A DNA stretch of 43,481 nucleotides from a virus. Lineage: Duplodnaviria; Caudoviricetes. Of the stretch, positions 1 to 42,492 are shown in pieces. The stretch's first letter is position 1, and the number at the start of each line of letters is the position of its first letter. Under the pieces are notes generated by a model that saw only the letters and a program-made list of their open reading frames with translations, had not been told where the DNA came from and ran no database searches. The stretch spans positions 1 to 43,481 of the IMG/VR virus record IMGVR_UViG_3300048599_000711; one strand, given 5' to 3'. Position numbers and translations under genes: made by a program.

Positions 1-3000
1 GTGACCATTGTTGATGAGATCAAATCACGGATTGATATCCTGGACGAGATCGGCGCAAGCGTCAAGTTGAAACGAACCGGGAAGAATCATGTGGGACTTT
101 GCCCGTTTCACCCGAATTCACGGACGCCCGCCCTGGCCGTTTTCCCTGGCACACAAACCTGGAAATGTTTTGGCTGTGAGAAAGGCGGAGACGTTTTTGA
201 TTTTGTGATGCTGCGCGAGGGCTGGGATTTCAAAGAGACGATGCGTTACCTGGCCGGGAAAGCGGGTATTGAGCTGAAGCCGCTGACACCGGATGAACAG
301 CAGCGCCTGGACGCGAAACGGGAACGGGAAGCCATCTTTGGCGCAGCAGCCGACTATTTCAGAAAGCAATTGGGCGCGCCGACGATGCTGCCGGTGCCAG
401 CCAGCGCAATGAACCCGGGCCTGGTATATGCCTTATATGAACGGCGTTGGACCACCGCCACCCTGCGCGACTCGTGGACCGGTTATTTTGGTAAAGATTG
501 GAATGGGCTGCGGGCGCACTTCCAACAGACCGGAATCAACCTGGAAGCACCCGCCGCGGTGGCGTTGATCGGCTTTCAGGGAGATGTGGCCGCCTGGGGG
601 CAGCGCTGGGGCGTGAAAGTAGCCGCCGGGTGGGTAGAAGATCGAAAGATTCCAGCGATGCCGCCCAACATGTTAATTTATGTCCACCTGGTGCGCGGGC
701 GAGTGATCTACCTTTCCGGGCGCAAACTGGAAGTAAAAGAGGACCAGGCCAAGAGCTGGAACCCGCCCAGTGAGCTGGTGGGCGACCGATCGGTATATTT
801 CAACCAGGTGTGGTGGGGCGAGAAAGAGTCGAAATTTCTGGTGATCGTCGAAGGGCAGGCAGACGCCAAGACCCTGGGGCAATGGAACATCCCAGCCGTA
901 GCACTGTGTGGATCGTCGATTTCTTATGAACACAGCGATAAAAGCGAGGACGGCGGAAAACCGCCCAGTTCCGATAATCTTTTATTATCGGAACTGAGAC
1001 GAAAAACGGGCAAAACTGGGCGAATCGTGGTCGGTCTGGACCGGGAAGAAGAGCAAAAGAAGGCCCTTGCCATCCACGAAAAGACTAAAAAGCTTATACA
1101 AGATCTTTCCGGCAGCGGGTTCACCGTCGTTCAGCTTGCCAGGGTGGAATGGCCGCTGCATGACGCCAACGCCTGGCTGCAAGACGGCGGCACGGCAGCG
1201 GCAGCCAACCTGCTGGTAAGCCGCGCAGAAACTGTCCTGCAAGACCTGATCGCCAACGCCGAACCCACCGGCGACTCGACTGAGGGCGGCAAGAGCGACG
1301 AAGAGGCGGTACAAAAGCTGTTCGCCGAACTGGCCCGGCTGGGCCCGTTTGATGTGGAGCGGGTGCGCGATGAAGTTACCGACCGGCTGCGCCTGCGGAA
1401 GCGCATGTTTGATGGGCTGCTGAAAGCCGCCCGACGCGACGCCGGGCGCAATGATGACGGCGAGCCCGCGTATTTCGTCGAGGGGGGAAGAATTTTTGCC
1501 AGGTACTTCGACCAACGCGGGGGAGAAACGGTCGAAGCCCTGTGCAACTTTTCCGCGGCGATTCAGGGCGATGTGCTGCGCGATAACGGGCAGGACATTA
1601 TCCGTGAGTTTCATATTCGCGGCACGATTGGGAAGTTTAACCTGCCGCTGGCGCGAGTGCGCGCAGAAGATTTCTCGAAGATGGACTGGGTGCTGAGCAG
1701 TTGGGGGAGCCGGGCCATCATCGAAGCGGGCTCTCGGCGGCGGGATCAATTGCGGGCTGCCATTCAACACCTGAGCCCGGATGTGCAGCGCATGGTGGTC
1801 TATACCCACACCGGATGGCGGGATATTGACAGCGGAACGGGTAACAAACGGATTTACCTGACCGCGGCCGGGGCCGTGGGCGGCGACCATGTGGATGTTG
1901 AGCTGGACCGGGATCTTGAGCTATACGCAGTCCCGCCGATTGCGAAAGACCCGGCCGACGCGATGGCGCTGAGCCTGACCTATCTGGACATTGCGCCCGA
2001 CCGGGTGGCCTTTCCGCTGTGGGCCGCCATGTTCCTGCCCCCACTGCGGGACCTGGTGAATGTAGCGTTTGCGCTGTGGATTTATGGCGCCAGCGGAACG
2101 ATGAAAAGCACCTACGCAGCGCTGGCGCTGAACCATTACGGGCCGCAGTTCGACGACAAGCACCTTCCAGCCAACTTCACCGACACGGCCAACCGGCTGG
2201 AGCAAAAATCGTTTGTCGTCAAAGATGCGCCCCTGTTGATCGACGATTTCGCGCCGCAGAAGGACCAGCGCAGCTATACCGAATACACCCGCACCGCACA
2301 CCGCATTGTACGCGCCGCCGGGAACCTGGCTGGCCGCGGGCGGCTTTCGGCGGACTCGACGGCCCGGGCAACCTACGATCCGCGCAGCCTGGTGATGATC
2401 ACCGGCGAGGACCTGCCAGAAAGCGAAAGCCTGGTTGCGCGGTTGTTTGTGGTGGAGGTGAACCGCGGCGACGTGGATAAGGCGAAGTTATCCGCGCTCC
2501 AGGCAAAGCGGGAACGGTTGAGCCACGCGATGAGCGGGTACCTGACCTGGGCCAGCCAAAATTGGTCCACCTGGACAGAATCCGTACCGAAACAATGGCG
2601 AACGTACCGGCAGGAAGAATTTGAGGCCGGGTATCATCTGCGGCTGCCTGAAGCAGTCGCTGGGCTGATGATCGGGACCGAAATGGGGCTGCGCTACGCG
2701 CTCACCCTGGGCGTGATTAACTCAAACAAGTTTCACCGCCTCACGGAGCGCGCGCGGGTTGCTCTCCGAGAAGGCGCGCAAGCCATGAGCAACCGGGTGA
2801 AAGAGGAAAAGCCCGAGATGCTGTTCATCCGCACCATCAGTGACCTGCTGGTCCAAGGGAAGATCTACTTCCGAGGGATTAATGAAATGTACCCTCCCAT
2901 CGGCGGTCCTGCTGAACACTCGGAAATGCTGGGATGGTATGACCTCGACCGGTTCTATCTATTGCCTGAAGCGACCTATAACCGGATTTCAAAGCATTTT

Positions 3001-3198
3001 CGGGACCAGGGCAATGTATTCCCGGTCCGAGAGGTTACGCTGCGGAAGATGCTGGCCGAAGCCGGGATGATTGAAATGGAAACAACAAAGGATGGTATTT
3101 CCCGACGAACCAAATCCATCAATGTCGAAAAGGCCTCAAGGCGCGTCATGGTGCTGCGGCGTTCTTTACTCCAGGAACAGGAAGGAGAGGAGAAATAG
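1..3198 (+). CDS. Phage primase-helicase fusion (CHC2 Zn finger, TOPRIM, DUF927-like/SF3 helicase)
   Basis: N-terminal CPFH...WKCFGC, VEGQADA TOPRIM motif, Walker A GASGTMKST, Walker B LLIDD. Confidence 0.88.
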   Translation: MTIVDEIKSRIDILDEIGASVKLKRTGKNHVGLCPFHPNSRTPALAVFPGTQTWKCFGCEKGGDVFDFVMLREGWDFKETMRYLAGKAGIELKPLTPDEQQRLDAKREREAIFGAAADYFRKQLGAPTMLPVPASAMNPGLVYALYERRWTTATLRDSWTGYFGKDWNGLRAHFQQTGINLEAPAAVALIGFQGDVAAWGQRWGVKVAAGWVEDRKIPAMPPNMLIYVHLVRGRVIYLSGRKLEVKEDQAKSWNPPSELVGDRSVYFNQVWWGEKESKFLVIVEGQADAKTLGQWNIPAVALCGSSISYEHSDKSEDGGKPPSSDNLLLSELRRKTGKTGRIVVGLDREEEQKKALAIHEKTKKLIQDLSGSGFTVVQLARVEWPLHDANAWLQDGGTAAAANLLVSRAETVLQDLIANAEPTGDSTEGGKSDEEAVQKLFAELARLGPFDVERVRDEVTDRLRLRKRMFDGLLKAARRDAGRNDDGEPAYFVEGGRIFARYFDQRGGETVEALCNFSAAIQGDVLRDNGQDIIREFHIRGTIGKFNLPLARVRAEDFSKMDWVLSSWGSRAIIEAGSRRRDQLRAAIQHLSPDVQRMVVYTHTGWRDIDSGTGNKRIYLTAAGAVGGDHVDVELDRDLELYAVPPIAKDPADAMALSLTYLDIAPDRVAFPLWAAMFLPPLRDLVNVAFALWIYGASGTMKSTYAALALNHYGPQFDDKHLPANFTDTANRLEQKSFVVKDAPLLIDDFAPQKDQRSYTEYTRTAHRIVRAAGNLAGRGRLSADSTARATYDPRSLVMITGEDLPESESLVARLFVVEVNRGDVDKAKLSALQAKRERLSHAMSGYLTWASQNWSTWTESVPKQWRTYRQEEFEAGYHLRLPEAVAGLMIGTEMGLRYALTLGVINSNKFHRLTERARVALREGAQAMSNRVKEEKPEMLFIRTISDLLVQGKIYFRGINEMYPPIGGPAEHSEMLGWYDLDRFYLLPEATYNRISKHFRDQGNVFPVREVTLRKMLAEAGMIEMETTKDGISRRTKSINVEKASRRVMVLRRSLLQEQEGEEK
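971..991. repeat. Dif-like palindrome copy 1 (intragenic, 7-nt spacer)
   Basis: CCGATAA TCTTTTA TTATCGG; inverted arms extend to CAGTTCCGATAAT/ATTATCGGAACTG (966-996). Confidence 0.85.
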
Positions 3199-3404
3199 TG
3201 AATCAACAATTCGATGACCTAAAACAAACCTTCCAGAAAATTGCCTCGATGTCTCAAGGTGAGCGTTACGACCTGCTGAATGAATTGGCGAAGAAAGGTT
3301 TTGTGATCACGATCACCCTACAGACTGACGACGAAGGCGTTTTGCATGAATCAATCTTCTTCCAGACAAAAGAAGAAGTTGTGAATACCAGAACCGGTAA
3401 TTGA
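3198..3404 (+). CDS. Hypothetical protein
   Basis: 68-aa ORF coupled to the primase stop, with GGAG upstream. Confidence 0.6.
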   Translation: MNQQFDDLKQTFQKIASMSQGERYDLLNELAKKGFVITITLQTDDEGVLHESIFFQTKEEVVNTRTGN

Positions 3405-3413
3405 TGTTATCAG
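3394..3413. repeat. Dif-like palindrome copy 2
   Basis: CCGGTAA TTGATG TTATCAG, overlapping a stop codon just upstream of parB. Confidence 0.75.
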
Positions 3414-3425
3414 AAGGAGTTCGAA

Positions 3426-4355
3426 ATGAGTAAGAAAGCAAAGTCAACGACTTTATCAACCGCACCGACGCCCACGCCTGCCGCATCTTTGAATGGCCTG
3501 GTCGAAATGCCTCTGGAGTTGATCTTGCCCAATCCCGAGCAGCCCAGGGTTACATTCAACCCAATGGAGCTGGATGACCTGGCGCAATCGATTCGCGAAA
3601 ACGGTGTGATCCAGCCGGTGATTGTTGAACCCGCCGAAAACGGAATGTATTACCTGCATGCCGGTGAACGGCGAACCCGGGCAGCCCGCCTGGCCGGCCT
3701 GACGACCATTCCAGCCGTGATCACTCCCCGCCTAAATGGCCATGGCAGCCAGGATCGGCTGGTGCGGGCGTTGGTAGAAAATCTTCAGCGCGCGGACATG
3801 AACCCGGTAGAAGAGGCGAAAGGATATCAACGGTTGGTCGAAATGGGTTTTTCGATGAATGATATCGCGCTGAAAATGGGGATCAGTTCCGCCCGGGTCG
3901 CTTCGCGGTTGAAAATTCTGGAACTGGATCAACCAATTCAGGACTTAATTCAATCCGGCAAGCTTTCAAAGGACAACCGTCTCACGGCTGCACTGATGGA
4001 CATTCCTGACTCAGCAGCTCGTGTGAAAATGGCGAAAACGCTGGCAGACCGGAACGCATCAATCACTGCCGGGCTGGAAGCCTGCGACCGGCTGAAGCAT
4101 TCTCTGCAAGCGAAAAAAATCAGCTCGAACGAAATTCCTGCGATCCAATTAGCCAGCCAAAAGGCGGGCGCCGTGAATCGGCCGATCTGGAATGCCTTTT
4201 CTTCCGTCGGAAAGGTACCGCCCTGGCCGCTGATGGAGATCTCTGTAAGGGATACCTGTAACCGGTGCGGTTTGCGCGATGTGGCCAGTGAAACCACCTG
4301 TAACGGATGCGCGCTTGTGGAACTGCTGCGCCAGATGATCGGAGCGACCCAATGA
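3426..4355 (+). CDS. ParB/RepB/Spo0J family protein
   Basis: PNPEQPR, GVIQPV, AGERRTRA, ENLQRADMNPVEEA motifs plus HTH; C-terminal CxxC...CxxC. Confidence 0.92.
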   Translation: MSKKAKSTTLSTAPTPTPAASLNGLVEMPLELILPNPEQPRVTFNPMELDDLAQSIRENGVIQPVIVEPAENGMYYLHAGERRTRAARLAGLTTIPAVITPRLNGHGSQDRLVRALVENLQRADMNPVEEAKGYQRLVEMGFSMNDIALKMGISSARVASRLKILELDQPIQDLIQSGKLSKDNRLTAALMDIPDSAARVKMAKTLADRNASITAGLEACDRLKHSLQAKKISSNEIPAIQLASQKAGAVNRPIWNAFSSVGKVPPWPLMEISVRDTCNRCGLRDVASETTCNGCALVELLRQMIGATQ

Positions 4356-6744: not shown

Positions 6745-7000
6745 CTCATTCGAAGAATCAATTTGCTCTTATAAGATAGGCGATATGGTCCAATGGACTC
6801 ACCGTCGAGATCGCGGGCGCACAATCCAATATTTTGCCATGGAAGGCAAAATACTAGAGATCAACGGAAATCTAGCGGTAATCAAACGAACGGGATCCGG
6901 AAGGAAATATACTGTTGCGCTGACGCGGTTACGGTCGATCGATGAGGTCAACGAGTTGACTGAGTGGGTATTGGGCAAAAAGAGCAGAACCGATAAGTAA
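6737..7000 (+). CDS. Hypothetical SH3-like small protein
   Basis: YKIGDMVQW...GKILEI pattern; coupled ORF. Confidence 0.55.
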   Translation: MNSSFEESICSYKIGDMVQWTHRRDRGRTIQYFAMEGKILEINGNLAVIKRTGSGRKYTVALTRLRSIDEVNELTEWVLGKKSRTDK

Positions 7001-7009
7001 CCTTATCGG
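6990..7009. repeat. Dif-like palindrome copy 3
   Basis: CCGATAA GTAACC TTATCGG overlapping a stop codon. Confidence 0.9.
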
Positions 7010-7030
7010 CATAACCAAGAGGGGAAAAAA

Positions 7031-11628: not shown

Positions 11629-11702
11629 CAGTTATATAAAAAATCAGCATGAATTATCCTAATAAAGGAAAAATGCCATAGTTACCCAGGTCAATTGTTA
11701 TT

Positions 11703-11722
11703 CCGATAACCTTTCTTATCGG
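11703..11722. repeat. Dif-like palindrome copy 4
   Basis: CCGATAA CCTTTC TTATCGG (TCCG/CGGA extension). Confidence 0.9.
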
Positions 11723-11741
11723 ACCTAAATAACTCATTCAC

Positions 11742-13184: not shown

Positions 13185-13237
13185 AAGAGATTCCTTAAAA
13201 GGCGAAACTCCGATTTTTCCGATTTTTGAGGTTATTC

Positions 13238-13840
13238 ATGGCGAAATCCCCACACGACGATGAAAAAACCGCTTTCCCGGCGTCTGAGGCAACGCCTGGT
13301 CAGGCGGAGAGTCGCCAGGCGCGCCAGGCGTTTTTGGAGAAGTCGGAGGACTGCCCGTGGTTACAGGATTATCTGGAACTGCGGCTGGAGGGTTGGGATT
13401 GGCGCAAGGCAGCTTACATTGCCTGGGCATCCAGCCCAATGGCGGACCGTTGGCCGGAGAACCAGCAAAAGCTGGCGGTAGAAATTTTGGGGCTAAAGAG
13501 CGACCGCACCATCCGCACCTGGCGTGAGAAGGATCCGTCGATTGATGAACGGGTGGCGCGTTTGCAGATTGAGCCGCTGATGCAGCACCGGCGCGATGTA
13601 ATCATGGCGCTGATTGATTCCAGCAAGATCATTGGCAAGAACGGCGCGTCCGATCGGCGCACCTATTTGACTCTCACCAAGGATCTCAAGCCAGGCAAGG
13701 CCAATGATAACGACCGGGATGGGAAGCACTCCCCATCGCCATTCGCCAGCATGGACGATGATGAGCTGGAGCGTGTCATTCGCAATTTGCGGGCGGCAGC
13801 AGGAGAGGAAGAGGATGACGACACCGGGGATGATGAATGA
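13238..13840 (+). CDS. Putative terminase small subunit
   Basis: HTH (LAVEILGLKSDRTIRTW), acidic tail, immediately upstream of TerL. Confidence 0.7.
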   Translation: MAKSPHDDEKTAFPASEATPGQAESRQARQAFLEKSEDCPWLQDYLELRLEGWDWRKAAYIAWASSPMADRWPENQQKLAVEILGLKSDRTIRTWREKDPSIDERVARLQIEPLMQHRRDVIMALIDSSKIIGKNGASDRRTYLTLTKDLKPGKANDNDRDGKHSPSPFASMDDDELERVIRNLRAAAGEEEDDDTGDDE

Positions 13841-15524
13841 CCGCAGACGGCTGCAACAGGAGAACCTGGCGGCTGCCCTGGCGGAGCGTAACCGGCGCTC
13901 CTCAGCTCAGCGCACCGACCTGCTGACCTGGTCCATCGTTCACCGGGCAAACCTCAAGCCCGGTTTGCCGTTTAATCTGACCGACCATCCTTACCTGACC
14001 CAAATCTACCAGGATACTTCACGGATCATGGTCCTGTATAAAGCCAGCCAGATGGGCGCCAGCGAGTACGCGGTGTCTTATGCGCTTCAGGCAGCCGATG
14101 AACGCCTGGCAACCATTCTGTATGTCTTCCCCACAGACACCCATGTTTCGGATTTTTCCTCTGCCCGCATCGGTCCCGCCATTGAAGCCAGCCCGTACCT
14201 GGACCAGATCATCATTGAAGGCGGCGACGCCGGCGGGAAACGCGGCGCGGACCGGGTGACGCTGAAGCGCGTGCGGGACCGCTTTATCTATCTGCGCGGC
14301 GGGCAGGTCAAGCCGAATGGCCAGGCGCCACAGCTCAAATCCATCGACGCGGATGTGATCATCCTGGATGAAGTGGACGAAATTGACCCGCGCGCTCCTT
14401 TCATCGCCGAGAAACGCCTGGGACACTCCGCCATTGCCGAACAGCGCTGGATCTCCACCCCCACTTATCCGGGCGTGGGCATCCATGCCAAATGGCTGGA
14501 GAGCGACCAGCGCGAATGGTTTATACGCTGTGAGCACTGCGGCGAGCGGCAGCCGATGACCATCCACCAGGTGGTGCAGGAATGGGATGAGTTGGAGCGG
14601 CCTGTGAAGTGGCGGGACGATGTGGCCTGCCGGAAGTGCGGCAAGGCGCTGGACCGGTTAGCGACCGGCGAATGGGTGCCTACCTTCCCGGATCGGGAGA
14701 TCGCTGGGTTCCACCTGACCAAGTTATTTTCACCCACCGCGCACCTGGTGGAGCTGGTGAAAGGGCTGATCACCACCGATGAAACCAAGCGGCGTGAAGC
14801 TTTTAACCAGGACCTGGGCGAGACCTATACCCCGCGCGGCGGGCAGATCACCGATGCCACCCTGGACGAATGCCGCCGGGATTATGGCCGCGGACCGGCT
14901 GCCGGTGAGAAAACGGTAATGGGCGTGGATGTGAACAAGACTCTCAACGTGGTGATCCGCGGGCCACAGCACAAAGAGACCGGCGAACGGCCGCTGCGGT
15001 TTGCCGCGGAGGTCGAGTCTTTTGAAGCCCTGGGGTATTTGATCCGCCAGTATAAAGTTGGCCGCTGTGTGATTGACGCCCTTCCGGAGACGCGCAAGGC
15101 GCGCGAGATCCAGGATGCGTTTGCACCAAAGACGCGGAAAGAAGGTTTGATCGTTCCGGATTTCGAGCATGGCATCATCTGGCTGGCCTATTACGTTAAC
15201 CAGCAAACCGGCTCGAAAAACGCTGATCTGGCTGCCTGGGATAAGGACAAGGGCGTGGTGAACATCGACCGCACGCGCTCATTGGACACAACCTTCAGCC
15301 GCTTCTACGATCACCTCAACACCCTGCCCGGCGATGCCCGGGAACTACCTCAATACTATGCGCAGCTCAAAGCGCCGGTCCGCTCAGTGAAAAAGGACTC
15401 GACCGGTCAGCCGGTGGCGCATTACGTAGAAAGCAGCCCAGACCACTATGCGCACGCGGAAAACTACTGCACGGTGGCCGGTTTGGATATCCCCACCCGC
15501 CGCGCTGGCACCTGGGGACGGTAA
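13815..15524 (+). CDS. Terminase large subunit (lambda GpA-like family)
   Basis: KASQMGAS Walker A variant, IILDEVD Walker B, ISTPT, CEHC...CRKC, MGVDV nuclease, DHYAHAENY. Confidence 0.93.
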   Translation: MTTPGMMNDRRRLQQENLAAALAERNRRSSAQRTDLLTWSIVHRANLKPGLPFNLTDHPYLTQIYQDTSRIMVLYKASQMGASEYAVSYALQAADERLATILYVFPTDTHVSDFSSARIGPAIEASPYLDQIIIEGGDAGGKRGADRVTLKRVRDRFIYLRGGQVKPNGQAPQLKSIDADVIILDEVDEIDPRAPFIAEKRLGHSAIAEQRWISTPTYPGVGIHAKWLESDQREWFIRCEHCGERQPMTIHQVVQEWDELERPVKWRDDVACRKCGKALDRLATGEWVPTFPDREIAGFHLTKLFSPTAHLVELVKGLITTDETKRREAFNQDLGETYTPRGGQITDATLDECRRDYGRGPAAGEKTVMGVDVNKTLNVVIRGPQHKETGERPLRFAAEVESFEALGYLIRQYKVGRCVIDALPETRKAREIQDAFAPKTRKEGLIVPDFEHGIIWLAYYVNQQTGSKNADLAAWDKDKGVVNIDRTRSLDTTFSRFYDHLNTLPGDARELPQYYAQLKAPVRSVKKDSTGQPVAHYVESSPDHYAHAENYCTVAGLDIPTRRAGTWGR

Positions 15525-15532
15525 ATTTAGTA

Positions 15533-15552
15533 CTGATAATTGGTCTTATCGG
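15533..15552. repeat. Dif-like palindrome copy 5
   Basis: CTGATAA TTGGTC TTATCGG between terL and portal. Confidence 0.85.
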
Positions 15553-15571
15553 TCATAGGAGAAGATGAAAT

Positions 15572-21709: not shown

Positions 21710-21717
21710 ACAGTATT

Positions 21718-21737: not shown

Positions 21738-21750
21738 TTCTAATTTTTGA

Positions 21751-24265: not shown

Positions 24266-24269
24266 GCAG

Positions 24270-24289: not shown

Positions 24290-24403
24290 AACAAAAAGTT
24301 TTCCCTAAAAAACCCCTCTTCTTTTCAGGATAAAAAAGTTATTAAGTGTCATAATAAATTTATTCAAACAGTTAATTCAATAAAATGGAAAATGGAGGTA
24401 GCT

Positions 24404-27632: not shown

Positions 27633-27638
27633 CCAGTT

Positions 27639-27658
27639 CCGATAATCACCGTTATCGG
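27639..27658. repeat. Dif-like palindrome copy 8
   Basis: CCGATAA TCACCG TTATCGG. Confidence 0.9.
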
Positions 27659-27694
27659 CATTGTTTTCCATCTATTTATCAGGAGAAATAGGAA

Positions 27695-29755: not shown

Positions 29756-30127
29756 ATGGCCGAACTGACCCCTGGGACGCGCGTCGTCGGTGAACAGGTA
29801 AGAGATATTATCAGCACCAGCCTGACGGATGGCCAGGTGAATGCGATGATTAACACCGCTCACCTGGTCGTCGAACAGCACCTGGGAACAAAGAACCTGG
29901 CGCCTGACCTGCTGGAGCAAATCGAATTATGGCTGTCAGCGCACTTTGTTTGCATGCGCGACCCGCGAAAAAAACAGGCGAAGATCGACGAGCTGTCGGT
30001 CACGTTTCAGGGTGAAGTCGGTCTCGGTTTGCATGGATCCATGTATGGACAGCAGGCAATCGCCCTGGACCCCACCGGCAGCCTGGCCAGCACCACGTTG
30101 AAACGCGCTGTGATCAAGGTGGAGTAG
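29756..30127 (+). CDS. Head-tail adaptor
   Basis: IELWLSAHF...SMYGQQAIALDPTG; position. Confidence 0.72.
   Translation: MAELTPGTRVVGEQVRDIISTSLTDGQVNAMINTAHLVVEQHLGTKNLAPDLLEQIELWLSAHFVCMRDPRKKQAKIDELSVTFQGEVGLGLHGSMYGQQAIALDPTGSLASTTLKRAVIKVE
29795..29814. repeat. Dif-like palindrome copy 9 (degenerate, intragenic)
   Basis: GAA-CAGGTAA GAGATA TTATCAG; two mismatches in the left arm. Confidence 0.45.
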
Positions 30128-32610: not shown

Positions 32611-32615
32611 CAGTT

Positions 32616-32635
32616 CCGATAACAGGAATTATCAG
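32616..32635. repeat. Dif-like palindrome copy 10
   Basis: CCGATAA CAGGAA TTATCAG; spacer doubles as the RBS of the next gene. Confidence 0.85.
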
Positions 32636-32637
32636 CC

Positions 32638-32955
32638 ATGAAACTTTCTGACTTACGCAAAAAAACCAAGAAAATCTCCATTGAAATCCAGGGAGATACC
32701 CTGAATGTTGAATACCGTCTGAACGTTGTCACCCCTTTATTTCTGCGGGAACTCGGGTCCATCGAAGACAGCGACGAAAACATTACCCGGCAGCTTCAGG
32801 AAGTGGTCGCCAGTTGGGATCTCCTGGACGATGAGGGCAAGGAGATCAAACCAACCGTTGAGTTAGTCCAATCCATTCCGCGGCCGTTCTGGATGAAGCT
32901 TTTTGACATCATTCTGGAAGATATGAAGGCGTCTGTCGAACAAAAAAAAGCTTAA
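32638..32955 (+). CDS. Tail assembly chaperone (G-like)
   Basis: VVASWDLLDDEG motif; between tail tube and tape measure; ends at an A8 slippery run. Confidence 0.8.
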   Translation: MKLSDLRKKTKKISIEIQGDTLNVEYRLNVVTPLFLRELGSIEDSDENITRQLQEVVASWDLLDDEGKEIKPTVELVQSIPRPFWMKLFDIILEDMKASVEQKKA

Positions 32956-33166: not shown

Positions 33167-36064
33167 ATGGCGATTACTGCCGCAAAATTACGAGTTGAAA
33201 TTGGCGCGGACACTCAAAACGCAGAAGCCGGGATGAATCGCGTTCAGGCCGGGATGCAGAAATTAGGCACAGTTGGCCAGGTTGCCCTGGGGACCGTACT
33301 GGGCAGCGCCGTGAAAAAGGCAGGCGAAGAAATCCTGGGTCTTGGCGGGCAGGCCCTCGATGCTTATTCCGGATTTGAGCGGATGGGAATGAGCATGCAG
33401 CAGCTCGTGGCGAAGGAACAGCTCAACACAGGCGCTGCAACCGATATGGCTTCCGCCCTGGGGATGAGCGCCGATGCAGCCCAGGGATTGCTCAAATGGA
33501 ACCAGCAACTGGCCATTGACAGCCCGTTTACGAGCAAGGGCGTCAATGACGCTTTCAGTATGGCCATGGCGTATGGATTTAACTCCAAACAGGCCAAACG
33601 GTTAACTCAGGACCTGATTGATTTCTCCGCCGGTGCAGGAAAGTCCGAAAACACAATGCAGCGGGTTGCCCTGGCTCTGGGGCAAATAAATGCAAAAGGA
33701 AAGTTGGCTGGTCAAGAAGTTCTTCAACTCACTGAAGCAGGCATCAGTGTAGACCAAATATTAGCCAAAGCATTTAATAAATCCACGGCAGAAATCGTTT
33801 CGATGCGCGAGGATGGACTGATTCCGGCCGACCAGGCAATCGAAGCCATTGCGCAGAGCCTGGAGAAGGACTTCGGCGGCGCCGCCAAACGCCAGGCTGA
33901 ATCGTTCAGTGGGTTGATCTCCTCCCTGGAAGACATCAAGGAAATTGATTTACGCGAGGCCTTCAGCGGTGTTTTTGAAGAGTTCAAACCAGACCTTATC
34001 CAAGTTGTGGACACCTTGCAAGATCCTAAGGCCCTGAATTCAATACGCGCCTGGGGGGAGAGTTTCGCAAAAAGCGCGAGGGAAATGGTTAATGGAATAA
34101 AAAATATCCTTGGATGGTATAACAACCTTGAAAATGGAACACAGACCACAATCATCGGGTTAGGTCTATTAGCGCTTAATGCTAAGACTGTGAGCACCGC
34201 AATCAACGGTATTGTGACAATCGCTTCTGGACTGCCTACTTTAATCAACGGATTATCTACCTCATGGGCCTGGTTAAATACAGGGTTTAGCCTCACCACA
34301 TCCCTACAGGAAGGAATGGGGCTGTCGAGCATGGCCATTTCACTTGGCGCCGTGGGGTTGGCTGTTGGAGGAGTCGCCGCTGCCTGGCTTGTATGGAATG
34401 AAACCATTGGAAAAACGAATCGCATTGTTTCAGAAAAAGTCTCACTCGGTCTAGAAAAAGATCTTGGTCTTGTAGCCCAAAAAACCAAAGATAATACTGC
34501 CCTCCTGGATGAATTCATTACTAAATACAAGGAATTTAAAACAGAAGCGGCGAAAGAAAGGAATACCCCTGAATTTCTATTAAACAACAAAGAAATTGCC
34601 ACCTCAGCATTAAAAGAATTTAGTGATTCTTTGCTTAAACTTAGTGGCGATTATGAAACCTACCAACGGATGATGCTTAAAGCTGCTGATGCAACAGGAG
34701 TGATGAATAATCGTTCTGCGCAATTAATTATGTCTGGTACCAATGTAGCACTTAAAAACCAGTACATGGCGGATACTCTTTCGATTCTTACGAAAGAACA
34801 ATGGGCAGCAACGCGGGCGGTTGATCCTTTGGCACAAAGTTATAAGGGCCTTGATAGATATCAACGAGCCGCTATCGATTCTATGTATGGCATGACCGCT
34901 TCTTTTCTCCAGCAGTCGATGGCCGCCCATAATACGATCCCTATTATCAGCAGCTATAACGAGGCTATGGGGAAAGTTACCGAAGCGCAGAATAAATTTA
35001 ACGAATCATTCGGTGATAAAGTCGTTCAGAAAATGGATCAATTAGGTATTAAAGGAAAAAAATATACTGACGTTCTGGGTTTATTAGACGAAAAAAACGG
35101 GACAAATTTATTAGCCCAGTATCAAACAAACCAAAGTCTTGATGACCTGATGAAAAAATATTATGCAGGAACTATCAGTCTTGAGGATCTTGGCACTGCC
35201 TTGGAAACTAACAAAACCCAGTGGGAAAAGCTCGATGAAGGAATTCAAGCAGCCAAAGATACCTGGGATTCATTCATCCGCAGCATCGCTTCAGCAGATG
35301 GGATGCACGTCACCATCACAGCCGATGTCTCTTCATCAGGCGGCTCGTCCGGAGGAAGCAAGGGATCAACCGGGTCCGGCATAGCAAAATGTTTTATCGG
35401 TTCGACCCTGGTTGATACCCCCCAGGGTCCGCGGCCGATCAGCGCCCTTTCCGCTGGCGATGAAGTGCTGCTGCTTAACGAATACCAGGAACTGGAAATC
35501 ACCCAGGTTGAGGATGTGATTACCGGTTATCGGGATGACCTGGTTTCAGTCGAAACGAGTAATCGCCAGGTGTTCCACTGCTCTCCCAACCATCCATTCA
35601 AAACACCAGATGGCTTTATCTGGGCGGGCACGCTTCAGCCAGGAACCGAATTGATATCAACCGATGCGTCGGTTTCTGTTCTATCGGTCACTCCATACCC
35701 GGGTACGTTCCGGGTATTTGATATCCGAGTCTACCATCCAGATCACACGTTTCTTGTGGGCGGGATTTGTGTGCATAACAAGGAGCCAGTCGAGACCCGG
35801 GCCAGTGGTGGACCAGGTTATAAAGGTGATTGGTACCTGACCGGCGAAGAAGGTCCAGAACTTATTCGGTTTCCTCGCAATGGGACGGTCTTTACCAACC
35901 AAGAGACCCAGGGGATCTTGAACTCTTTGCAGTCCATAGCGCAAGGCGCCACCGGCGCTTCGATCAACGTCAACATATACCCACAGCAAGCATCCACCGA
36001 ACTCGATTACTACTCGATAGCTTACACCGCTGCCGGAATCATCAAGCGGAAGATGAATTTATAG
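33167..36064 (+). CDS. Tape measure protein with Hint domain
   Basis: LRVEIGADT start, SPF...ALGQINAKGKLAGQEVLQLTEAG tape-measure domain, ASGG...GEEGPEL C-terminus; Hint at 35390-35779. Confidence 0.9.
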   Translation: MAITAAKLRVEIGADTQNAEAGMNRVQAGMQKLGTVGQVALGTVLGSAVKKAGEEILGLGGQALDAYSGFERMGMSMQQLVAKEQLNTGAATDMASALGMSADAAQGLLKWNQQLAIDSPFTSKGVNDAFSMAMAYGFNSKQAKRLTQDLIDFSAGAGKSENTMQRVALALGQINAKGKLAGQEVLQLTEAGISVDQILAKAFNKSTAEIVSMREDGLIPADQAIEAIAQSLEKDFGGAAKRQAESFSGLISSLEDIKEIDLREAFSGVFEEFKPDLIQVVDTLQDPKALNSIRAWGESFAKSAREMVNGIKNILGWYNNLENGTQTTIIGLGLLALNAKTVSTAINGIVTIASGLPTLINGLSTSWAWLNTGFSLTTSLQEGMGLSSMAISLGAVGLAVGGVAAAWLVWNETIGKTNRIVSEKVSLGLEKDLGLVAQKTKDNTALLDEFITKYKEFKTEAAKERNTPEFLLNNKEIATSALKEFSDSLLKLSGDYETYQRMMLKAADATGVMNNRSAQLIMSGTNVALKNQYMADTLSILTKEQWAATRAVDPLAQSYKGLDRYQRAAIDSMYGMTASFLQQSMAAHNTIPIISSYNEAMGKVTEAQNKFNESFGDKVVQKMDQLGIKGKKYTDVLGLLDEKNGTNLLAQYQTNQSLDDLMKKYYAGTISLEDLGTALETNKTQWEKLDEGIQAAKDTWDSFIRSIASADGMHVTITADVSSSGGSSGGSKGSTGSGIAKCFIGSTLVDTPQGPRPISALSAGDEVLLLNEYQELEITQVEDVITGYRDDLVSVETSNRQVFHCSPNHPFKTPDGFIWAGTLQPGTELISTDASVSVLSVTPYPGTFRVFDIRVYHPDHTFLVGGICVHNKEPVETRASGGPGYKGDWYLTGEEGPELIRFPRNGTVFTNQETQGILNSLQSIAQGATGASINVNIYPQQASTELDYYSIAYTAAGIIKRKMNL

Positions 36065-36066
36065 AA

Positions 36067-36086
36067 CCGATAATGGAGATTATCAG
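36067..36086. repeat. Dif-like palindrome copy 11
   Basis: CCGATAA TGGAGA TTATCAG; spacer doubles as RBS. Confidence 0.85.
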
Positions 36087-36089
36087 AAT

Positions 36090-37511
36090 ATGGCGCCGCA
36101 TTTATTACGGTTCACAATAGACCTTGATTCAATCGATTTGACCAGTTCTCCCTACTGGCTGATGCACTATGTGCCATCATCTCCCGATATTTCGGCCGTG
36201 GACGCCGTCAGTGAACTTGAGGATGGCGGTGAACGCATTCGAACGACCCGCCGGAATGTATCCGAAACCATTGAGGTCATGTTACGACCCGGTTCTGGCT
36301 TCACCATGGCTCAGGCTCAAAGCGAAGTTCAACGTCTGGAAAACCTCTTTCGGCTCGCAGAAGAAAGACAAGACAATAAGGCGACCATTCCGCTTTATCT
36401 TGAATTCCAACCCAAAGATACTTCAGCAATTTTTCGATCAGAAATTCTTTCGGGTAAAGTTGTTATTGATGACGATGGATTATCAACCTGGGCCATTAGT
36501 AAAACTGTTCTCATACAAATCCTCATCACACGGCGGTTTTACTGGGAGCAATCCAGTGAAGTGGAACTGCCATTATGGTCGACTGCCAATCCTGCGCCTG
36601 CTACCACAGGAGGTGTAATCGTAAACAATCGATGCGACTCAGGATATAGTAACTGGGTTTACGCCGCTGGAGGATACATTGGAGGATCTATTCCATCCCC
36701 AATAAGATTGGAGATCAATAACAATTTTAATAATACAACTCGATTTACCAAAATGTGGGTTGGTCAGAACATTTTCTCCAGTATGAATATCTCTAACCTC
36801 ATAGAAGCTGAAACAGCAGATCATGGAACTTCTTCTACTGTGGTTGATGTTGCAGGTACCAGCGGCGGGAAAATTCTTCAGTGTCAGGTGTCCAGCTCCG
36901 CATATCAGGTAATTTGTGGATGGGATTTGACATCCTCGATGCTCAGTCAATACAAGGGAAGATTTTTTCGGATTTTTGCAAAATTCGGGTCAAATCCTCC
37001 GATTAACGGTCTCTACACTCAGTTCAGGCTGTATTTTCCTTCCGGAACCTATCTAACTTTGGTCGGGCAAACACCTGAAGTAATGCTCAGCACATCCTAC
37101 ACCTATCAAGATCTCGGGACCATCCAACTGCCTCCATGGCTAACCAATGAAGACAATTTGACAGCTCTACGGTTAGGTATGTTTGTTCGATCCGCATCCA
37201 ATACTCTCGCAAATCTGGCGTTTGATTACATCCATATCACACCACTCGATGGCTTCCGAGTCTTAGACCCTGTTGGCTATGGTACTCCTTACGGATATAC
37301 CCTGACTGATGATGCGATGAATCGGTCTCTATTTGTCACTGATGGGACAACAAAGGCAGGCTATTATGTCGGCTATGGAAATCCGCTCATGGTCTGGCCT
37401 GGCCATAATACAAAATTTTATTTTATGGCCAGAAATGACTTGGATGCCTTCGAATTAACAAGAACTTATCGAATCAGGTTATTTTATCGACCAAGGAGAC
37501 TGACCGTATGA
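36090..37511 (+). CDS. Distal tail protein (Dit-like, with inserted domain)
   Basis: Position after the tape measure gene; GSIPSPIRLEI...YRPRRL ending. Confidence 0.6.
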   Translation: MAPHLLRFTIDLDSIDLTSSPYWLMHYVPSSPDISAVDAVSELEDGGERIRTTRRNVSETIEVMLRPGSGFTMAQAQSEVQRLENLFRLAEERQDNKATIPLYLEFQPKDTSAIFRSEILSGKVVIDDDGLSTWAISKTVLIQILITRRFYWEQSSEVELPLWSTANPAPATTGGVIVNNRCDSGYSNWVYAAGGYIGGSIPSPIRLEINNNFNNTTRFTKMWVGQNIFSSMNISNLIEAETADHGTSSTVVDVAGTSGGKILQCQVSSSAYQVICGWDLTSSMLSQYKGRFFRIFAKFGSNPPINGLYTQFRLYFPSGTYLTLVGQTPEVMLSTSYTYQDLGTIQLPPWLTNEDNLTALRLGMFVRSASNTLANLAFDYIHITPLDGFRVLDPVGYGTPYGYTLTDDAMNRSLFVTDGTTKAGYYVGYGNPLMVWPGHNTKFYFMARNDLDAFELTRTYRIRLFYRPRRLTV

Positions 37512-39046
37512 AGGCGCTATATCCAGTTTTCTTCCAACGTGATTTTTCCGAAAAACTTACAAATCCTGCTGAAAAAATGATCATTAATCCATATTCGGCG
37601 AAATCAATAGGAGGAAATGATCAATTAACTATTACCGCTTTCGGCAACAAACAGCAACTTTGGGCATTGACGGATTGGCTTCGCGTCCCTGTAGAAATAT
37701 GGGATTGGCGAGGTGAAGCAGTTTGGTGGGGTTTCGTCAAAACGGTTACTGTCAGAATCGGGAATCTAGAGATAGGGGTATCTCTTGATAACATGTATAA
37801 CCGTGTTGCAGTCGCCTACGCAGAAGAAGGGGGAAGTGGAAAACGAGCGACAACGAGTTGGGTCCAGGATGACACCAGTGTTGCGACCTTTGGAAAAAAA
37901 GAGCTACTTTATTCTCAATCTTATGGGAACGAACAATCAGCAAACTCTTTACGAGATCGGATTCTCTCTGAGCGTAAAAATCCACAATCTAAAATTACCG
38001 TTCTACCAGATGTTAATGGTATCTCTGCAACGATGGAGTGTGTTGGTTGGTGGGAGGCGCTGGACTGGGTCTATTATAGCCAACCTGCCGGTCTGGAAGA
38101 ATACACAGATTCAGGAACCGGAACCCAAGAGCTAGGAAAGTCATCTTCCAACCAGAAGGTTGCACAAAGTTTTAAATCCTCTCTTTCATGGGATGCAGCT
38201 TCAATCGAGATCAGCATCTCAAAGGTCAATAGCCCAACAGATGCTATCCAAATCGATTTATGTTCAGATTCTTCTGGTACACCAGGCATTGTTTTAGCCC
38301 ATGGGCAAGTTCCAAACTCTGATATCGATTCGGGCTCGAATATGGTCAAAGCGTCACTAGACGTCCAAGTCCCAATAAGCGCCGGGGTCACATACTGGAT
38401 TGTTATTTATAGATCAGGCTCTCTGGATACATCCAATTGTTATCGGATTAACTGTAACGAAGAAGCTGCTTATGCTAATGGGATTTTCCGGATTTTCAAC
38501 GGCACAACCTGGTCCCCCCGTGATCCAAATGCCGATATGAATTTCCGTGTAAATGGCGCTCGTGAAAACACGATGCAAATGCAAGATATGGTTAGCGCCA
38601 GCCAGTTCTTTACAAGTTTCACAGTCGACCAGGGATCAGGGATTAAATCCAGCCAGTATCGTGATGGAGACACCACCATCAGAACAGAACTTGAGTCTTT
38701 GTTGAAGACAGGCAAAGCCAATGGAACCAGATATCTTGCGGCTGTCAGCCAAGCCCGGGTTATTCGAGTCTATCAAGAGCCTTTTTATTTAGAAGATGAT
38801 GTTGATATCTTAATGTCATCTACTGGAGATCTTGAAGGGAAACTACAAACATCCATTCTGAGGCATACCTGCCCAGTTGCCGCCTGGGTGAAATTAAAAG
38901 ATGTTATTCCAAACAGTTCAGGTTCTCAGTTTATTACCGATGTTGGGCGTTTTTTCATCGAACGAGCTGAGTATGATCCTGTATCGGAAAGGCTCTCCCC
39001 AGAACCAAGGGGGAGCGATAGTACCTGGGATATTTTAGGGGAATAG
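37508..39046 (+). CDS. Tail hub/tip protein
   Basis: WWGFV...LDNMYNRV...SVATFGKKE; VAQSF...GVTYWIV beta domain. Confidence 0.6.
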   Translation: MKALYPVFFQRDFSEKLTNPAEKMIINPYSAKSIGGNDQLTITAFGNKQQLWALTDWLRVPVEIWDWRGEAVWWGFVKTVTVRIGNLEIGVSLDNMYNRVAVAYAEEGGSGKRATTSWVQDDTSVATFGKKELLYSQSYGNEQSANSLRDRILSERKNPQSKITVLPDVNGISATMECVGWWEALDWVYYSQPAGLEEYTDSGTGTQELGKSSSNQKVAQSFKSSLSWDAASIEISISKVNSPTDAIQIDLCSDSSGTPGIVLAHGQVPNSDIDSGSNMVKASLDVQVPISAGVTYWIVIYRSGSLDTSNCYRINCNEEAAYANGIFRIFNGTTWSPRDPNADMNFRVNGARENTMQMQDMVSASQFFTSFTVDQGSGIKSSQYRDGDTTIRTELESLLKTGKANGTRYLAAVSQARVIRVYQEPFYLEDDVDILMSSTGDLEGKLQTSILRHTCPVAAWVKLKDVIPNSSGSQFITDVGRFFIERAEYDPVSERLSPEPRGSDSTWDILGE

Positions 39047-39048
39047 AA

Positions 39049-39069
39049 CAGATAATATGGACTTATCGA
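39049..39069. repeat. Dif-like palindrome copy 12 (7-nt spacer, degenerate)
   Basis: CAGATAA TATGGAC TTATCGA overlapping a start codon. Confidence 0.6.
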
Positions 39070-41120
39070 AACTAGCTTCGGATATCAATCCCTATATTAA
39101 ACCATTCGTGGTCCGCTGGATCGGTGAAATTCAATCCACGAGTCGTGGAGCGCCCACCCCACACGATCTTCAATCAAAACACCATACAGGATCAATCTCG
39201 GATGCCCAGGGACCGCAATTTCTTAAATCTGATGGCAGCAGGCTATTATCAGGGAGCCTGGATGTATCACCTGGAATCACAATTGATGGCGTTGACCTGA
39301 GTGAATTTTGGACAGCATATCAAGCCCATTTGTCCTCTGATAGCCATACTAAATATGCCAGTGCAGCAGGCTCTGGCATATTACGCCCGGCTGAAGCACT
39401 CTCGAAATCTGTAAATGCAGGATGGGGTTTATCTGGAGGTGGGACATTAACAGATGATGTTGATATATCAGTGGATGCTAGCAGCGCTCCAGGATCAACT
39501 TCCCAAGTTTTGAAAACCAATGAAGATGGAGAAATCATTCTGAATCGTGTAGTTTCCGACGCTGGTTTCTTTCCAACATTTCCAGACACAGCAGATTTAG
39601 GATCTTCCTCAAAGCCTTTCCGGAAGGGATGGCTGTCAGAGATGGATGCGGTCCTATTCTCAAAAAACACAATGACCCTTCTTGGGGGGTGGTTCCGTGT
39701 ATCAAAAAATGAAGGTGTACTTCCAACTGACTTAACTGAAATCATGACAACTTATGATTTCGGTCAATCTATGACCGTTGGCGATTTTGTTTTAATGAAA
39801 TCGCCATTGCAAATGGAATATGTCCAAATTGGATCTTTGGTTAATGGAACCATATATAACCTTACGCGGAATCTTGATGGCTCAGGTGTAAATTCCTGGC
39901 CAGCCGGAACCCTTTATGTTGTTAATGGACAAAATGGGGATGGATGGATCGAGTTTAATGCTTACGATACCCCCCGTATGTCTATCTTCCGGCAAGGTTC
40001 AACTTATTCATCACAGACTGAAAATTATCGCGCCGGTGACCTTATTGGAAATTGGGGCTATCTCGCATCGGCTTTTGGCATTGCGATTGGAGAATATGCA
40101 AATAACAAACCGAACTTGACCATTGATTCAACAAACGGATTTCGTATTAGAAACTACTCGACGACCGTGATCCAATTAGATACAGCAGGAAACGCGGACA
40201 TAACTTCAAAGTTAAGGCTGCCTGGAACTGGATCCGCGCTTGCAATCGGATCAACACCGCCAACAAGTTCATCTTCCGGTACAGGAGGCTGGATTGATCG
40301 AACTGGTTTTTATGGTTTAGCGGCAAATACCGTACAGGCAAAATGGGATTTTGGGACCGGAAAAATTACTGCTGGAGCAGGCGCAGTCATTTTAGACCAA
40401 ACCGGCCTGGGCCTAGTCAAAACACCCAGTCTGATCCAGGGATTTTATCAGCCCGCGTCGATCACCTGGTGGACCGACAACAAGGCGTCTATCGTAGCGA
40501 CAATGGGGCCAATTGTGGACACGGCGGGGTCCATCGGTCTCTCTTTTTGGGGCGAGGGCGGCGCGGGCGGCACACACTATCTCGGCGTACTGGATTATGC
40601 GGCATCCGTGATCAACACGATCAAATTAAACACCGGCGCCATCATTGCGACCAGTCTGAGCGCGGACGGCTCTGGCGCGCTGGCGCCTACCAACAGTGTG
40701 TCAGCCACAAATCTCTATGGTACTCATATCGTCAAAAATGGTTACGAAGGATCGATATTTGTCCCGCTGCAGAGCCCATATACCAACACGAGCTGGGACG
40801 GGGACTCTAAATCAACGACCGGCAAAACACTGATCGGCCTCAACTCGTTTGGTGTGCCATCCGTCGCAAAGGCAATTGCGTGCTGGGTCGAGGTCAAGGA
40901 TTCGGGAAGCAGCACTACGGATAACTGGATCTGCCTATCGCCAAACGCAACCGCCTACAGCGGCGTCTATGTATCGTCTTATGGGATGCCAAACGACCGT
41001 CCGAACCGTGAGTTTTTGATCGTGCCCTGCACAGCGGGCGGCGATCTGTATTATCAGACACTCGCGTCAGGTGCGGGAACACTGGATGTTGTTATTCAGA
41101 TTTGGGGTTACTGGATTTAG
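39057..41120 (+). CDS. Tail fibre / receptor-binding protein
   Basis: G/S/T-rich mosaic protein, last tail gene, ends IWGYWI. Confidence 0.7.
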   Translation: MDLSKLASDINPYIKPFVVRWIGEIQSTSRGAPTPHDLQSKHHTGSISDAQGPQFLKSDGSRLLSGSLDVSPGITIDGVDLSEFWTAYQAHLSSDSHTKYASAAGSGILRPAEALSKSVNAGWGLSGGGTLTDDVDISVDASSAPGSTSQVLKTNEDGEIILNRVVSDAGFFPTFPDTADLGSSSKPFRKGWLSEMDAVLFSKNTMTLLGGWFRVSKNEGVLPTDLTEIMTTYDFGQSMTVGDFVLMKSPLQMEYVQIGSLVNGTIYNLTRNLDGSGVNSWPAGTLYVVNGQNGDGWIEFNAYDTPRMSIFRQGSTYSSQTENYRAGDLIGNWGYLASAFGIAIGEYANNKPNLTIDSTNGFRIRNYSTTVIQLDTAGNADITSKLRLPGTGSALAIGSTPPTSSSSGTGGWIDRTGFYGLAANTVQAKWDFGTGKITAGAGAVILDQTGLGLVKTPSLIQGFYQPASITWWTDNKASIVATMGPIVDTAGSIGLSFWGEGGAGGTHYLGVLDYAASVINTIKLNTGAIIATSLSADGSGALAPTNSVSATNLYGTHIVKNGYEGSIFVPLQSPYTNTSWDGDSKSTTGKTLIGLNSFGVPSVAKAIACWVEVKDSGSSTTDNWICLSPNATAYSGVYVSSYGMPNDRPNREFLIVPCTAGGDLYYQTLASGAGTLDVVIQIWGYWI

Positions 41121-41381: not shown

Positions 41382-42469
41382 CAACGCCATTTGCAGGGAA
41401 AAGCATTTTTGTCTGGGAGAATGAAGCTATTCTCAATAACCAGCCGAATCTAATCGCCCAAAAACTGGCAAATGCCGGCTTTGAGACTGTTTACCTACAC
41501 ATTACCGACGGGCTTTATATCCCCTGGGTCGGATACCCAGCGGTAAGGAACGGTCGCCCCAACCGCGTTAACATTGACCTGGTCTCCGCGTTGAAGGCCA
41601 GAGGGCTGCACGTGTACGGCTGGGGCGCCGTTTATAATGCCGACCTGGTGCGCCAGGCGCAATTGGCCGCGCAGCGCTGCGCCGAGCTCGGCCTGGATGG
41701 CCATATTTTCGACGCAGAAGGCGATTTTGAAGAACCCGCCCAGGGCGCCAATTCCCGAGCGGTACGCCTGATAATGGAATTCAAAAAGATTTCCACACTT
41801 CCGGTTGCCTGGTGCTGGTGGTCCCACTACCAACCTCCATCCGGATCCGGAACCTGGCACCCAAAGGACATCCTCAGAGCTGTGATGGAGATCGCAGACG
41901 CGGGGATCATTATGGCTTACTGGTCCTGGGGCGATGCAGAGAAAGATGTTCTAAGATATCTGAATACCAGCCTGGATCAATGGGAAGTGTACACCAAAGG
42001 CAAGCCGATCATAGCAGCCGGCCGGGCGTATGTGGGCGACGGCGGAACCCCAACCACCGCATCAATCGCCGCTTTCCATAACCTGGCGGTGGCGCGCGGC
42101 TGCGCCGGCGTAAGCTGGTGGAGTCTGGAACATGCGCTCAAACTACCTGATATCTGGGCGGCTTTGTCGGCCCTTCCAGGATTTAAAACGGAACAACCGC
42201 CGGTTGTCATTCCTCAACCAGAACCCGAGCCAGAAAATCCGGTCATCACCAATGGTATCCAGATGCGAATTATCTGCCCCTGGTCCTTGCGCCTGCGAAA
42301 CAAGCCGGGAACCGTTGGGACCAATCTCATCCGCTGGCTGCAACCAGGAGATGAATTTATCGTTCAGGATATCGCCTACGCGACCAATGGCGCATGGGTT
42401 TATAACGGCGAGGGCTGGGCCTGCGCAGAAGACTCCAGCACAGCGTACATGGAACCTATCGCTGCATAA
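41378..42469 (+). CDS. Putative endolysin (glycoside hydrolase TIM barrel plus SH3b-like domain)
   Basis: VYGWG, HIFDAEG, GVSWWS; PQPEPEP linker; LRLRNKPG...GW C-terminus. Confidence 0.7.
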   Translation: MTTPFAGKSIFVWENEAILNNQPNLIAQKLANAGFETVYLHITDGLYIPWVGYPAVRNGRPNRVNIDLVSALKARGLHVYGWGAVYNADLVRQAQLAAQRCAELGLDGHIFDAEGDFEEPAQGANSRAVRLIMEFKKISTLPVAWCWWSHYQPPSGSGTWHPKDILRAVMEIADAGIIMAYWSWGDAEKDVLRYLNTSLDQWEVYTKGKPIIAAGRAYVGDGGTPTTASIAAFHNLAVARGCAGVSWWSLEHALKLPDIWAALSALPGFKTEQPPVVIPQPEPEPENPVITNGIQMRIICPWSLRLRNKPGTVGTNLIRWLQPGDEFIVQDIAYATNGAWVYNGEGWACAEDSSTAYMEPIAA

Positions 42470-42472
42470 CCG

Positions 42473-42492
42473 CCGATAATAACAATTATCCG
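42473..42492. repeat. Dif-like palindrome copy 13
   Basis: CCGATAA TAACAA TTATCCG between lysin and recombinase. Confidence 0.8.

Follow-up and report, generated by a model that had tools for sequence, protein, structure and literature searches.

The subject of this analysis is a set of 13 spaced inverted motifs, referred to below as the lattice, distributed over a provirus record (IMG/VR IMGVR_UViG_3300048599_000711; Caudoviricetes), whose 43,481 bases, taken at full length, are referred to as the window. The window is trimmed at the start of a primase gene and at the start of a recombinase gene, and encodes a primase-helicase, a ParB-like protein with a C-terminal Cys4 (3426..4355, plus strand), a likely small terminase (TerS; 13226..13840, plus strand), a large terminase (TerL; 13704..15524, plus strand), a portal, head and tail proteins, an IetA/IetS-like defence pair, and a 310-aa XerC/D-like tyrosine recombinase (42549..43481, minus strand). 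The host is likely to belong to Chloroflexota, judging from sequence relationships: the nearest prophage with the same layout sits in a Chloroflexota genome, and those ParB and TerS relatives that carry names come from Anaerolineales and Chloroflexi. A close relative of the window phage is contained in anaerobic digester sequencing runs.

An earlier note on this DNA, made from the sequence alone, had described 13 symmetric dif-like sites at the boundaries of gene modules. All of them are present where they had been placed, with spacers of 6 nt except for the 7-nt spacers of the copies at 971 and 39049, and the full site extends over 12+6/7+12 bp. The first site (966..996, 7-nt spacer) lies within the primase-helicase gene, the second (3389..3418) over the stop codon of the open reading frame (ORF) 3198-3404, preceding parB, the third (6985..7014) over the stop of ORF 6728-7000, and the fourth (11698..11727) is intergenic, with the nearest stop 36 nt away. 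Site 5 (15528..15557) occupies the boundary between terL and the portal gene; site 6 (21713..21742) follows directly after the IetS-like gene and closes the widest gap (6185 bp), in which the low-GC IetAS insertion of 3.4 kb is located; site 7 (24265..24294) contains the position, 24276, the last base of its left arm, at which the match to the close relative ends. The boundary of the DUF2213 protease gene and the decoration gene is occupied by site 8 (27634..27663); site 9 (29790..29819) is located within ORF 29756-30127 and is kept at this locus in two relatives (G942 and G750); site 10 (32611..32640) comes after the tail tube gene, and site 11 (36062..36091) overlies the stop of the tape measure gene. 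Site 12 (39044..39074, 7-nt spacer) and site 13 (42468..42497) cover the stops of ORF 37508-39046 and ORF 41378-42469, respectively, with 52 nt separating site 13 from the recombinase gene end. Thus, 10 of the 13 sites overlap a stop codon or lie at most 4 nt from one (5% for random positions); the earlier note had counted ten within 8 nt. Two of the remaining three are inside reading frames (the primase gene and ORF 29756-30127) and one is the intergenic site 4. PHROGs and Pfam did not confirm the labels Dit, hub, fibre and lysin that some neighbouring genes had been given earlier. Two defence insertions had been proposed to adjoin sites: one matches a defence system (IetA/IetS), whereas the other (24392-25681, GC 29%) matches no family.

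The lattice is clearly distinct from background. The pattern with a 6-nt spacer has 11 copies in the window versus a mean of 0.015 and a maximum of 1 in 200 dinucleotide shuffles, so shuffled sequence does not reproduce the density of the motif. With the looser core G(A/G)TAA-Nn-TTA(T/C)C, 11 copies are obtained at n=6 and 4 at n=7, versus 0-2 at each of the 18 other spacings, and a weight matrix recovers the 13 sites together with a weak candidate at 25158, which is lost on refinement. Across 168 arms the inner TAA and TTA are almost invariant (control spacings: 0-2 per record). The sites therefore show the layout of tyrosine-recombinase core sites, i.e. inverted arms of 11-13 bp around a 6-8-bp spacer, with the inner bases most conserved. 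Spacers are all different among the 13 sites, in agreement with the earlier note. Its argument for a DNA site and against an RNA stem also held: in 93 sites from 9 records, pairing of the arms on the sense strand yields 104 G-U versus 88 A-C combinations, and the two arms of one site are less complementary than shuffled pairs (669 versus 704+-11). Since arm complementarity falls below the shuffle and G-U is not preferred over A-C, an RNA hairpin or terminator was rejected, and the sites can be regarded as sites in double-stranded DNA. The supposed symmetry was not borne out. When the sites are modelled in two orientations, the fit improves by more than it does for re-paired arms (gain of 49.6 versus a null of 23.8+-5.0, with a maximum of 42.1 in 100), hence the sites are polar, and the outer YAG motif is found mostly on one arm. 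Their orientation relative to transcription is mixed, and it does not alternate along the genome (60 alternating among 155 neighbour pairs in 12 records).

The spacing of the sites is unusually regular. Gaps in the window range from 2156 to 6185 bp with a coefficient of variation (CV) of 0.31, which is more even than random points (0/20,000) and also more even than 13 random gene ends (P=5e-5). Even spacing was found in 13 of the 13 records tested (CV 0.19-0.52, P<=0.036), with a median gap of 4.8-15.4% of record length, and the gap taken across the record ends measures 1.3-7.6 kb in 12 of the 13. The median period is specific to each phage and runs from 2.2 kb (G948) to 6.6 kb (G955). Among 1416 pairs of spacers compared within genomes none was identical; for near-identical pairs the P-value is 0.82, 0.028 or <0.001, depending on the null.

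Relatives were collected by searches with TerL, ParB, the recombinase and TerS and by one scan with the motif, which gave 60 records or record pieces for examination. Sites are borne by 26 of the 60 (at least 3 sites, or kindred variants): 20 have a clear lattice, three (G963, G970, G960) show a variant whose core is CAA/TAA-N7, and in a further three (G744, G750, G004) there are 3-4 sites. The other 34 have no sites or 1-2. Because G950 is nearly identical to G527, and G963 is 94% like G970, the number of independent site-bearing records is about 23. The core TAA-N6/7-TTA is fixed and the spacers are 6 or 7 nt long, while the arms are specific to lineages, with at least eight types; a lattice genome has 7-20 sites. 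In one prophage with its host context (G051) the lattice is confined to the prophage (17 sites in 44 kb versus 0 in 20 kb of host flank). Within a single clade of phages the lattice is thus widespread, and recombinase sites are its most likely identity.

The suggestion that host Xer acts on these sites was not supported by the search of host genomes. Among 201 genomes from the order presumed to contain the host, 5 have the polar consensus (controls: 19 matches), and the symmetric core is found in 38 of 301 Chloroflexota genomes, with 1-3 copies each, i.e. the lattice site is rare on chromosomes. A loose dif-like pattern gave 9 matches in 5 genomes versus 18 in the control, with no candidate for a host dif. 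For the searched genomes, a host dif or a site of a host nucleoid protein was therefore rejected. One or two copies of the bare symmetric core are also seen in elements that are unrelated (an estimate of about 410 stretches); 50 of 50 viral records chosen by one perfect core have 1-2 copies of the strict pattern, and 30 capsid-related loci at 30-55% identity have 0-2 loose matches per locus. Several other elements came up in these searches. In three filamentous prophages (L173, L174, L175) the core is flanked by a pair of CCGATAA-N6-TTATCGG sites at a distance of about 7-9 kb. The spacers of the pair match in L173, where the sites are inverted, and in L175, where they are direct; a 428-aa integrase is encoded by L173 and by L174. 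A different spaced palindrome, GCGTCGC-N8-GCGACGC with at most one mismatch per arm, is repeated in G757 (L032, L421; 22 counts versus 0.46 expected). The 56-kb G953 (L530-L532) has a TerS of the clade discussed below and an FtsK-like gene, and no lattice was found in it, which may reflect natural loss or an unrecognised variant. In the prophage G748 a RAMP-family gene adjoins a PAPS-reductase gene (L245:12049-16428), a pair reminiscent of a type IV-B CRISPR locus.

The lattice sites are most likely tyrosine-recombinase-type DNA sites for the phage's own XerD-like enzyme, and it is probable that this enzyme binds them. That the sites are of tyrosine-recombinase type had been proposed earlier for either the phage's or the host's enzyme, and the tracking of arms and the intact motifs speak for the former. 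The distance between motifs correlates with the distance between recombinases (Spearman 0.65, P=0.002, 14 records; 0.63, P=0.001 as a partial correlation on TerS), also within the main clade (0.68, P=0.007, 11 records). The product of 42549-43481, which is the best candidate binder and likely not the prophage integrase, has the R, HxxR, H and Y motifs, and scores below the family cut-offs (XerD 155 bits versus 329.6; XerC 148.5 versus 335). Of the enzymes compared, HxxR and H...Y are present in 14 of 14 and the first R motif is matched in 11 of 14. Of the lattice records longer than 36 kb, 12 have a full XerD-like gene, G945 has a cut copy at its end, and in G748 none was found. Ten lattice records encode a longer integrase besides the XerD-like enzyme (an integrase tree was built with FastTree), and a longer integrase is also found in four lattice-negative records (G746, G972, G976, L160); in the window, which is trimmed at the primase, no prophage integrase is seen.

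Other proteins of the window were weighed as binders. ParB was rejected, for the closest relatives of the window ParB are lattice-negative and its tree scatters the lattice phages (a ParB of the window type is present in 9 of the compared lattice records). This ParB subfamily (3426-4355) has four invariant C-terminal cysteines over 97 aligned sequences, possibly a zinc-binding domain. A protein with multiple helix-turn-helix (HTH) motifs (4307-5293) was likewise discarded (closest relatives lattice-negative; Mantel -0.07, 7 records). TerS has an HTH and a weak likeness to phBC6A51/2AO9, and comparison of folds yielded no more than a weak match (Foldseek E 0.54; Z 5.2, root mean square deviation 8.9, 110 aligned); its clade marks the lattice-bearing phages. 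The first 7 site-bearing records that encode this TerS form one TerS clade (7/7; support 100/99), and 80 further TerS loci were added, of which 4 were re-finds and 3, without the N-terminus, were set aside. Window-type lattices were present in 22 further clade loci, 31 clade loci have mostly variant lattices (62 TAA-N6-TTA versus 4-18 at other spacings), and 24 outgroup loci have no window-type site (TAA-N6-TTA 37 versus 14-26 at other spacings), although 4 of these 24 fall inside the clade in the FastTree tree. Thus, the lattice accompanies one TerS clade despite differing TerL, head, tail and replication modules. This association would suit sites that are recognition marks of the small terminase, a distributed pac signal labelling phage DNA for packaging, and so would the lack of a lattice in 13 outgroup-TerS records; nevertheless, the distance between TerS proteins does not track the arms (0.22, P=0.09; partial 0.04), the clade includes the lattice-free G953, site clusters occur in G744 and G004, which do not have this TerS, and the fixed TAA-N6/7-TTA core has the geometry of recombinase sites. 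We consider such packaging marks improbable.

An FtsK-like ATPase is encoded by 14 of the 26 site-bearing records versus 3 of the 34 others (P=0.0003), and none is present in the trimmed window. It occurs, for instance, at L235:1-981, L409:1-1524 and L247:2152-3487, and its C-terminus likely contains an HTH; the ATPase is also encoded by G028 and G756, each of which bears 1-2 strong sites. The co-occurrence of the XerD-like enzyme, this ATPase and polar sites raises the question whether the lattice serves only to resolve replication multimers, with the ATPase as activator and with no relation to virion ends, much as Cre resolves P1 into monomeric circles. Yet one site suffices for dimers, so that 7-20 even copies with a phage-specific period are not predicted, and the FtsK distance does not track the motif (-0.06); there seems to be little chance that multimer resolution is the sole role.

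The enrichment of the ATPase is also what one could expect if the recombinase or another phage protein bound the sites without recombining them, as a genome-wide repressor, roadblock or organiser, or as a means to halt or unload DNA-tracking motors. There is a precedent in MrpR of SPbeta, a protein with the tyrosine-recombinase fold that is described as binding ten sites; a roadblock would suit the even spacing, and in G949 and G954 the sites are mostly co-oriented. On the other hand, the catalytic motifs are kept here, whereas MrpR, according to the same source, is catalytically dead and binds promoters (PMC10516654), the lattice sites stand at gene ends and not ahead of operons, and a close relative has a crossover-like junction. 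All this makes binding alone quite unlikely.

The junction in question was found in contigs of two digester runs of one study (X1 and X2). They follow the window up to 24276, the last left-arm base of site 7, with 15 differences in 777 bases, and continue with a spacer that differs at 6 of 6 positions, a consensus right arm and unrelated DNA to about 25709-25773. The switch lies at the very point where a tyrosine recombinase would be expected to cut and exchange strands. The 429-aa gene 24392-25681, in a stretch of GC 29%, has no family match, and other DNA takes its place in this relative. A 47-bp terminator-like repeat occurs in 87% identical copies at 21816-21862 and 25768-25814, the second of which forms the right border of the differing cargo. 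In the group of G963, the first base of a site marks the start of homology in two places (28351 and 36824), a third place has retained spacer and inner arms although the flanks are unlike, and at 21143 the spacer alone has changed in a conserved context.

These junctions, together with the 10 of 13 sites at gene ends, are what would be seen if the lattice had been selected, like pdif modules, for swapping blocks between co-infecting relatives or for capturing cargo. Against such a role, about 12 other breakpoints of the X1/X2 relative are away from the sites and its contigs bridge sites 5, 6 and 8 to 12 unbroken, and the alternation of C and D sites that pdif modules need is absent. The per-locus conservation of spacers that the earlier note had proposed to check is not general: at one and the same locus, relatives at 79-90% identity have spacers with 0-4 differences in 6 bases. 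Of about 13 breakpoints in the X1/X2 relative, one falls exactly on an arm/spacer junction, and the G963 group adds 2-3 junctions at sites. Shuffling leaves unexplained a period that is regular, specific to each phage and adhered to even where a site then falls within a gene, and we regard it as unlikely. Module exchange at the sites, also suggested earlier, is backed by the swap at the arm/spacer edge, not as the reason for the lattice; it is best read as a by-product of a lattice for circularisation. The sites may thus act as swap points, and the conserved per-locus spacers that shuffling needs hold only among close kin. Joints linking two lattice sites were not seen in contigs of 4 runs, which is not evidence of absence, because contigs drop rare forms.

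What, then, could a phage gain from so many evenly spaced sites? The explanation that we favour, tentatively, is that they are crossover sites of the XerD-like recombinase, spaced evenly so that permuted genomes packaged by the headful can circularise. Headful packaging, used for instance by P1, is described as yielding circularly permuted genomes with redundant ends (PMC11769102). If the period is at or below the length of the redundancy, some site would fall inside any terminal redundancy, and after injection the recombinase would join the two copies of that site into a circle. Deletions and inversions between neighbouring sites would be prevented by their different spacers, for only the two copies of one site share a spacer; by the same token, orientation and the identity of spacers across phages would be irrelevant. 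The same chemistry may resolve replication multimers and may occasionally bring in or swap cargo at a site. Circularisation predicts even spacing, continuity across record ends, free orientation, drifting spacers, a link to packaging genes and an enzyme independent of the integrase, all of which are seen, and median periods of 5-15% of the genome are within or somewhat above the range of terminal redundancy. It is conceivable, if a little more doubtful, that a clade of temperate Chloroflexota phages turned a single lox/dif site into a genome-wide ruler of 7-20 orthogonal sites spaced to the headful overhang, whose enzyme circularises permuted virion genomes without homologous recombination, the arms and the enzyme co-evolving.

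Several observations weigh against the recombinase and its role in circularisation. Headful packaging is itself a hypothesis: TerL has GpA-type domains, its nearest cultured matches (24-26%) are enzymes of Bacillus, Thermus and Vibrio phages, and the portal most resembles halovirus and ES18-like portals. Window gaps reach 6.2 kb (14% of the record), and the uniqueness of spacers is not significant (0 identical pairs seen, 0.6-2.3 expected). Annealing proteins of the ERF, RecT, Sak4 and Rad52 types exceeded the cut-off in 0, 1, 1 and 0 of 49 records, and this prediction did not discriminate because they are missing from lattice and non-lattice records alike. In the 6 records that share both proteins, the primase tracks the motif better than the recombinase does (0.88 versus 0.22; 0.89 for the primase on 8 records), yet the primase cannot be the general binder because G747, G748 and G051 use other replication modules. 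Finally, no XerD-like gene was found in G748, a lattice record of 46 kb, or in G004; the complete G746 has the enzyme and only 2 sites, the 16.7 kb examined of L160 have it with 1 site, and G976 has a truncated copy of the enzyme and no sites.

Some further features of the window deserve mention. The insertion with the IetA/IetS-like anti-phage pair (18322-21709, GC 35%) interrupts the head module and brings no lattice site with it. The tape measure protein (33038-36064) contains at aa 785-914 a HINT (intein-like) domain that scores under the Pfam cut-off. Two single-gene cassettes (7025-7709 and 10697-11281) have the same 30-34-bp terminal inverted repeats at their ends, and the former begins 10 nt past lattice site 3. 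In the digester runs the contig with the end 11220-11271 has greater depth, and one joint leaves out 10730-11220, as would be expected of a small mobile element.

If correct, circularisation by a lattice would constitute a third route to genome closure in headful phages, in addition to a single loxP and to annealing proteins, and terminal redundancy would become readable from sequence, the period being at most the overhang. The lattice would also be a testable source of mosaic junctions in phages. The arm types, at least eight with candidate enzymes, each of which tolerates many spacers, are starting points for orthogonal recombinase tools, and arms and enzymes together may amount to a library, made by nature, of orthogonal pairs of recombinase and site. 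Full-text searches, in a collection without most subscription papers, turned up no account of a lattice of this type.

Comparison with known systems places the lattice between several of them. As far as is known, Cre circularises P1 virion DNA only where the redundancy holds loxP, of which P1 has one copy. Like Cre, the XerD-like enzyme is a simple phage-encoded tyrosine recombinase apart from integration; unlike loxP with its 8-bp spacer, there are 7-20 even sites with 6- or 7-bp spacers, all different, and the enzyme is XerC/D-like. Cre is reported to make monomeric circles of P1 (PMC3424569). MrpR with its SPBRE sites is likewise a recombinase-fold phage protein on about ten dispersed sites, unlike the window enzyme with its intact catalytic motifs and its sites at gene ends. 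The site of IntA of Rhizobium etli (PMC4928290) has the arms TCCGATAA and TTATCGGA and a 7-bp centre, as does window site 1, but there is one site per plasmid, and no kinship of the window recombinase with IntA was detectable pairwise (E=0.056). With chromosomal Xer/dif and FtsK the lattice shares a polar 28-30-bp site, a 6-bp centre, an XerC/D-like enzyme, an FtsK-like ATPase in many relatives, and a left arm like that of F. alni dif, which is described as ending in CCGATAA before a 6-nt centre (PMC3025954). Chromosomal dif is single, however, whereas here there is a phage-wide lattice with one enzyme and no XerD arm of the TTATGT type in the window. The pdif/dif modules resemble the lattice in their many polar Xer-type sites, 6-bp spacers and location at gene borders, and the Acinetobacter pdif reactions are said to need identical or near-identical spacers (PMC13141974). 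They use host XerC/D, a fixed XerD arm, alternating C/D orientation and repeated spacers, in contrast to the phage-specific arms, the absence of alternation and of repeated spacers within a genome, and the site-free hosts of the lattice. On the features tested, the lattice thus belongs neither to host Xer/dif nor to the pdif modules: it looks like pdif and would work like a multiplied Cre/loxP.

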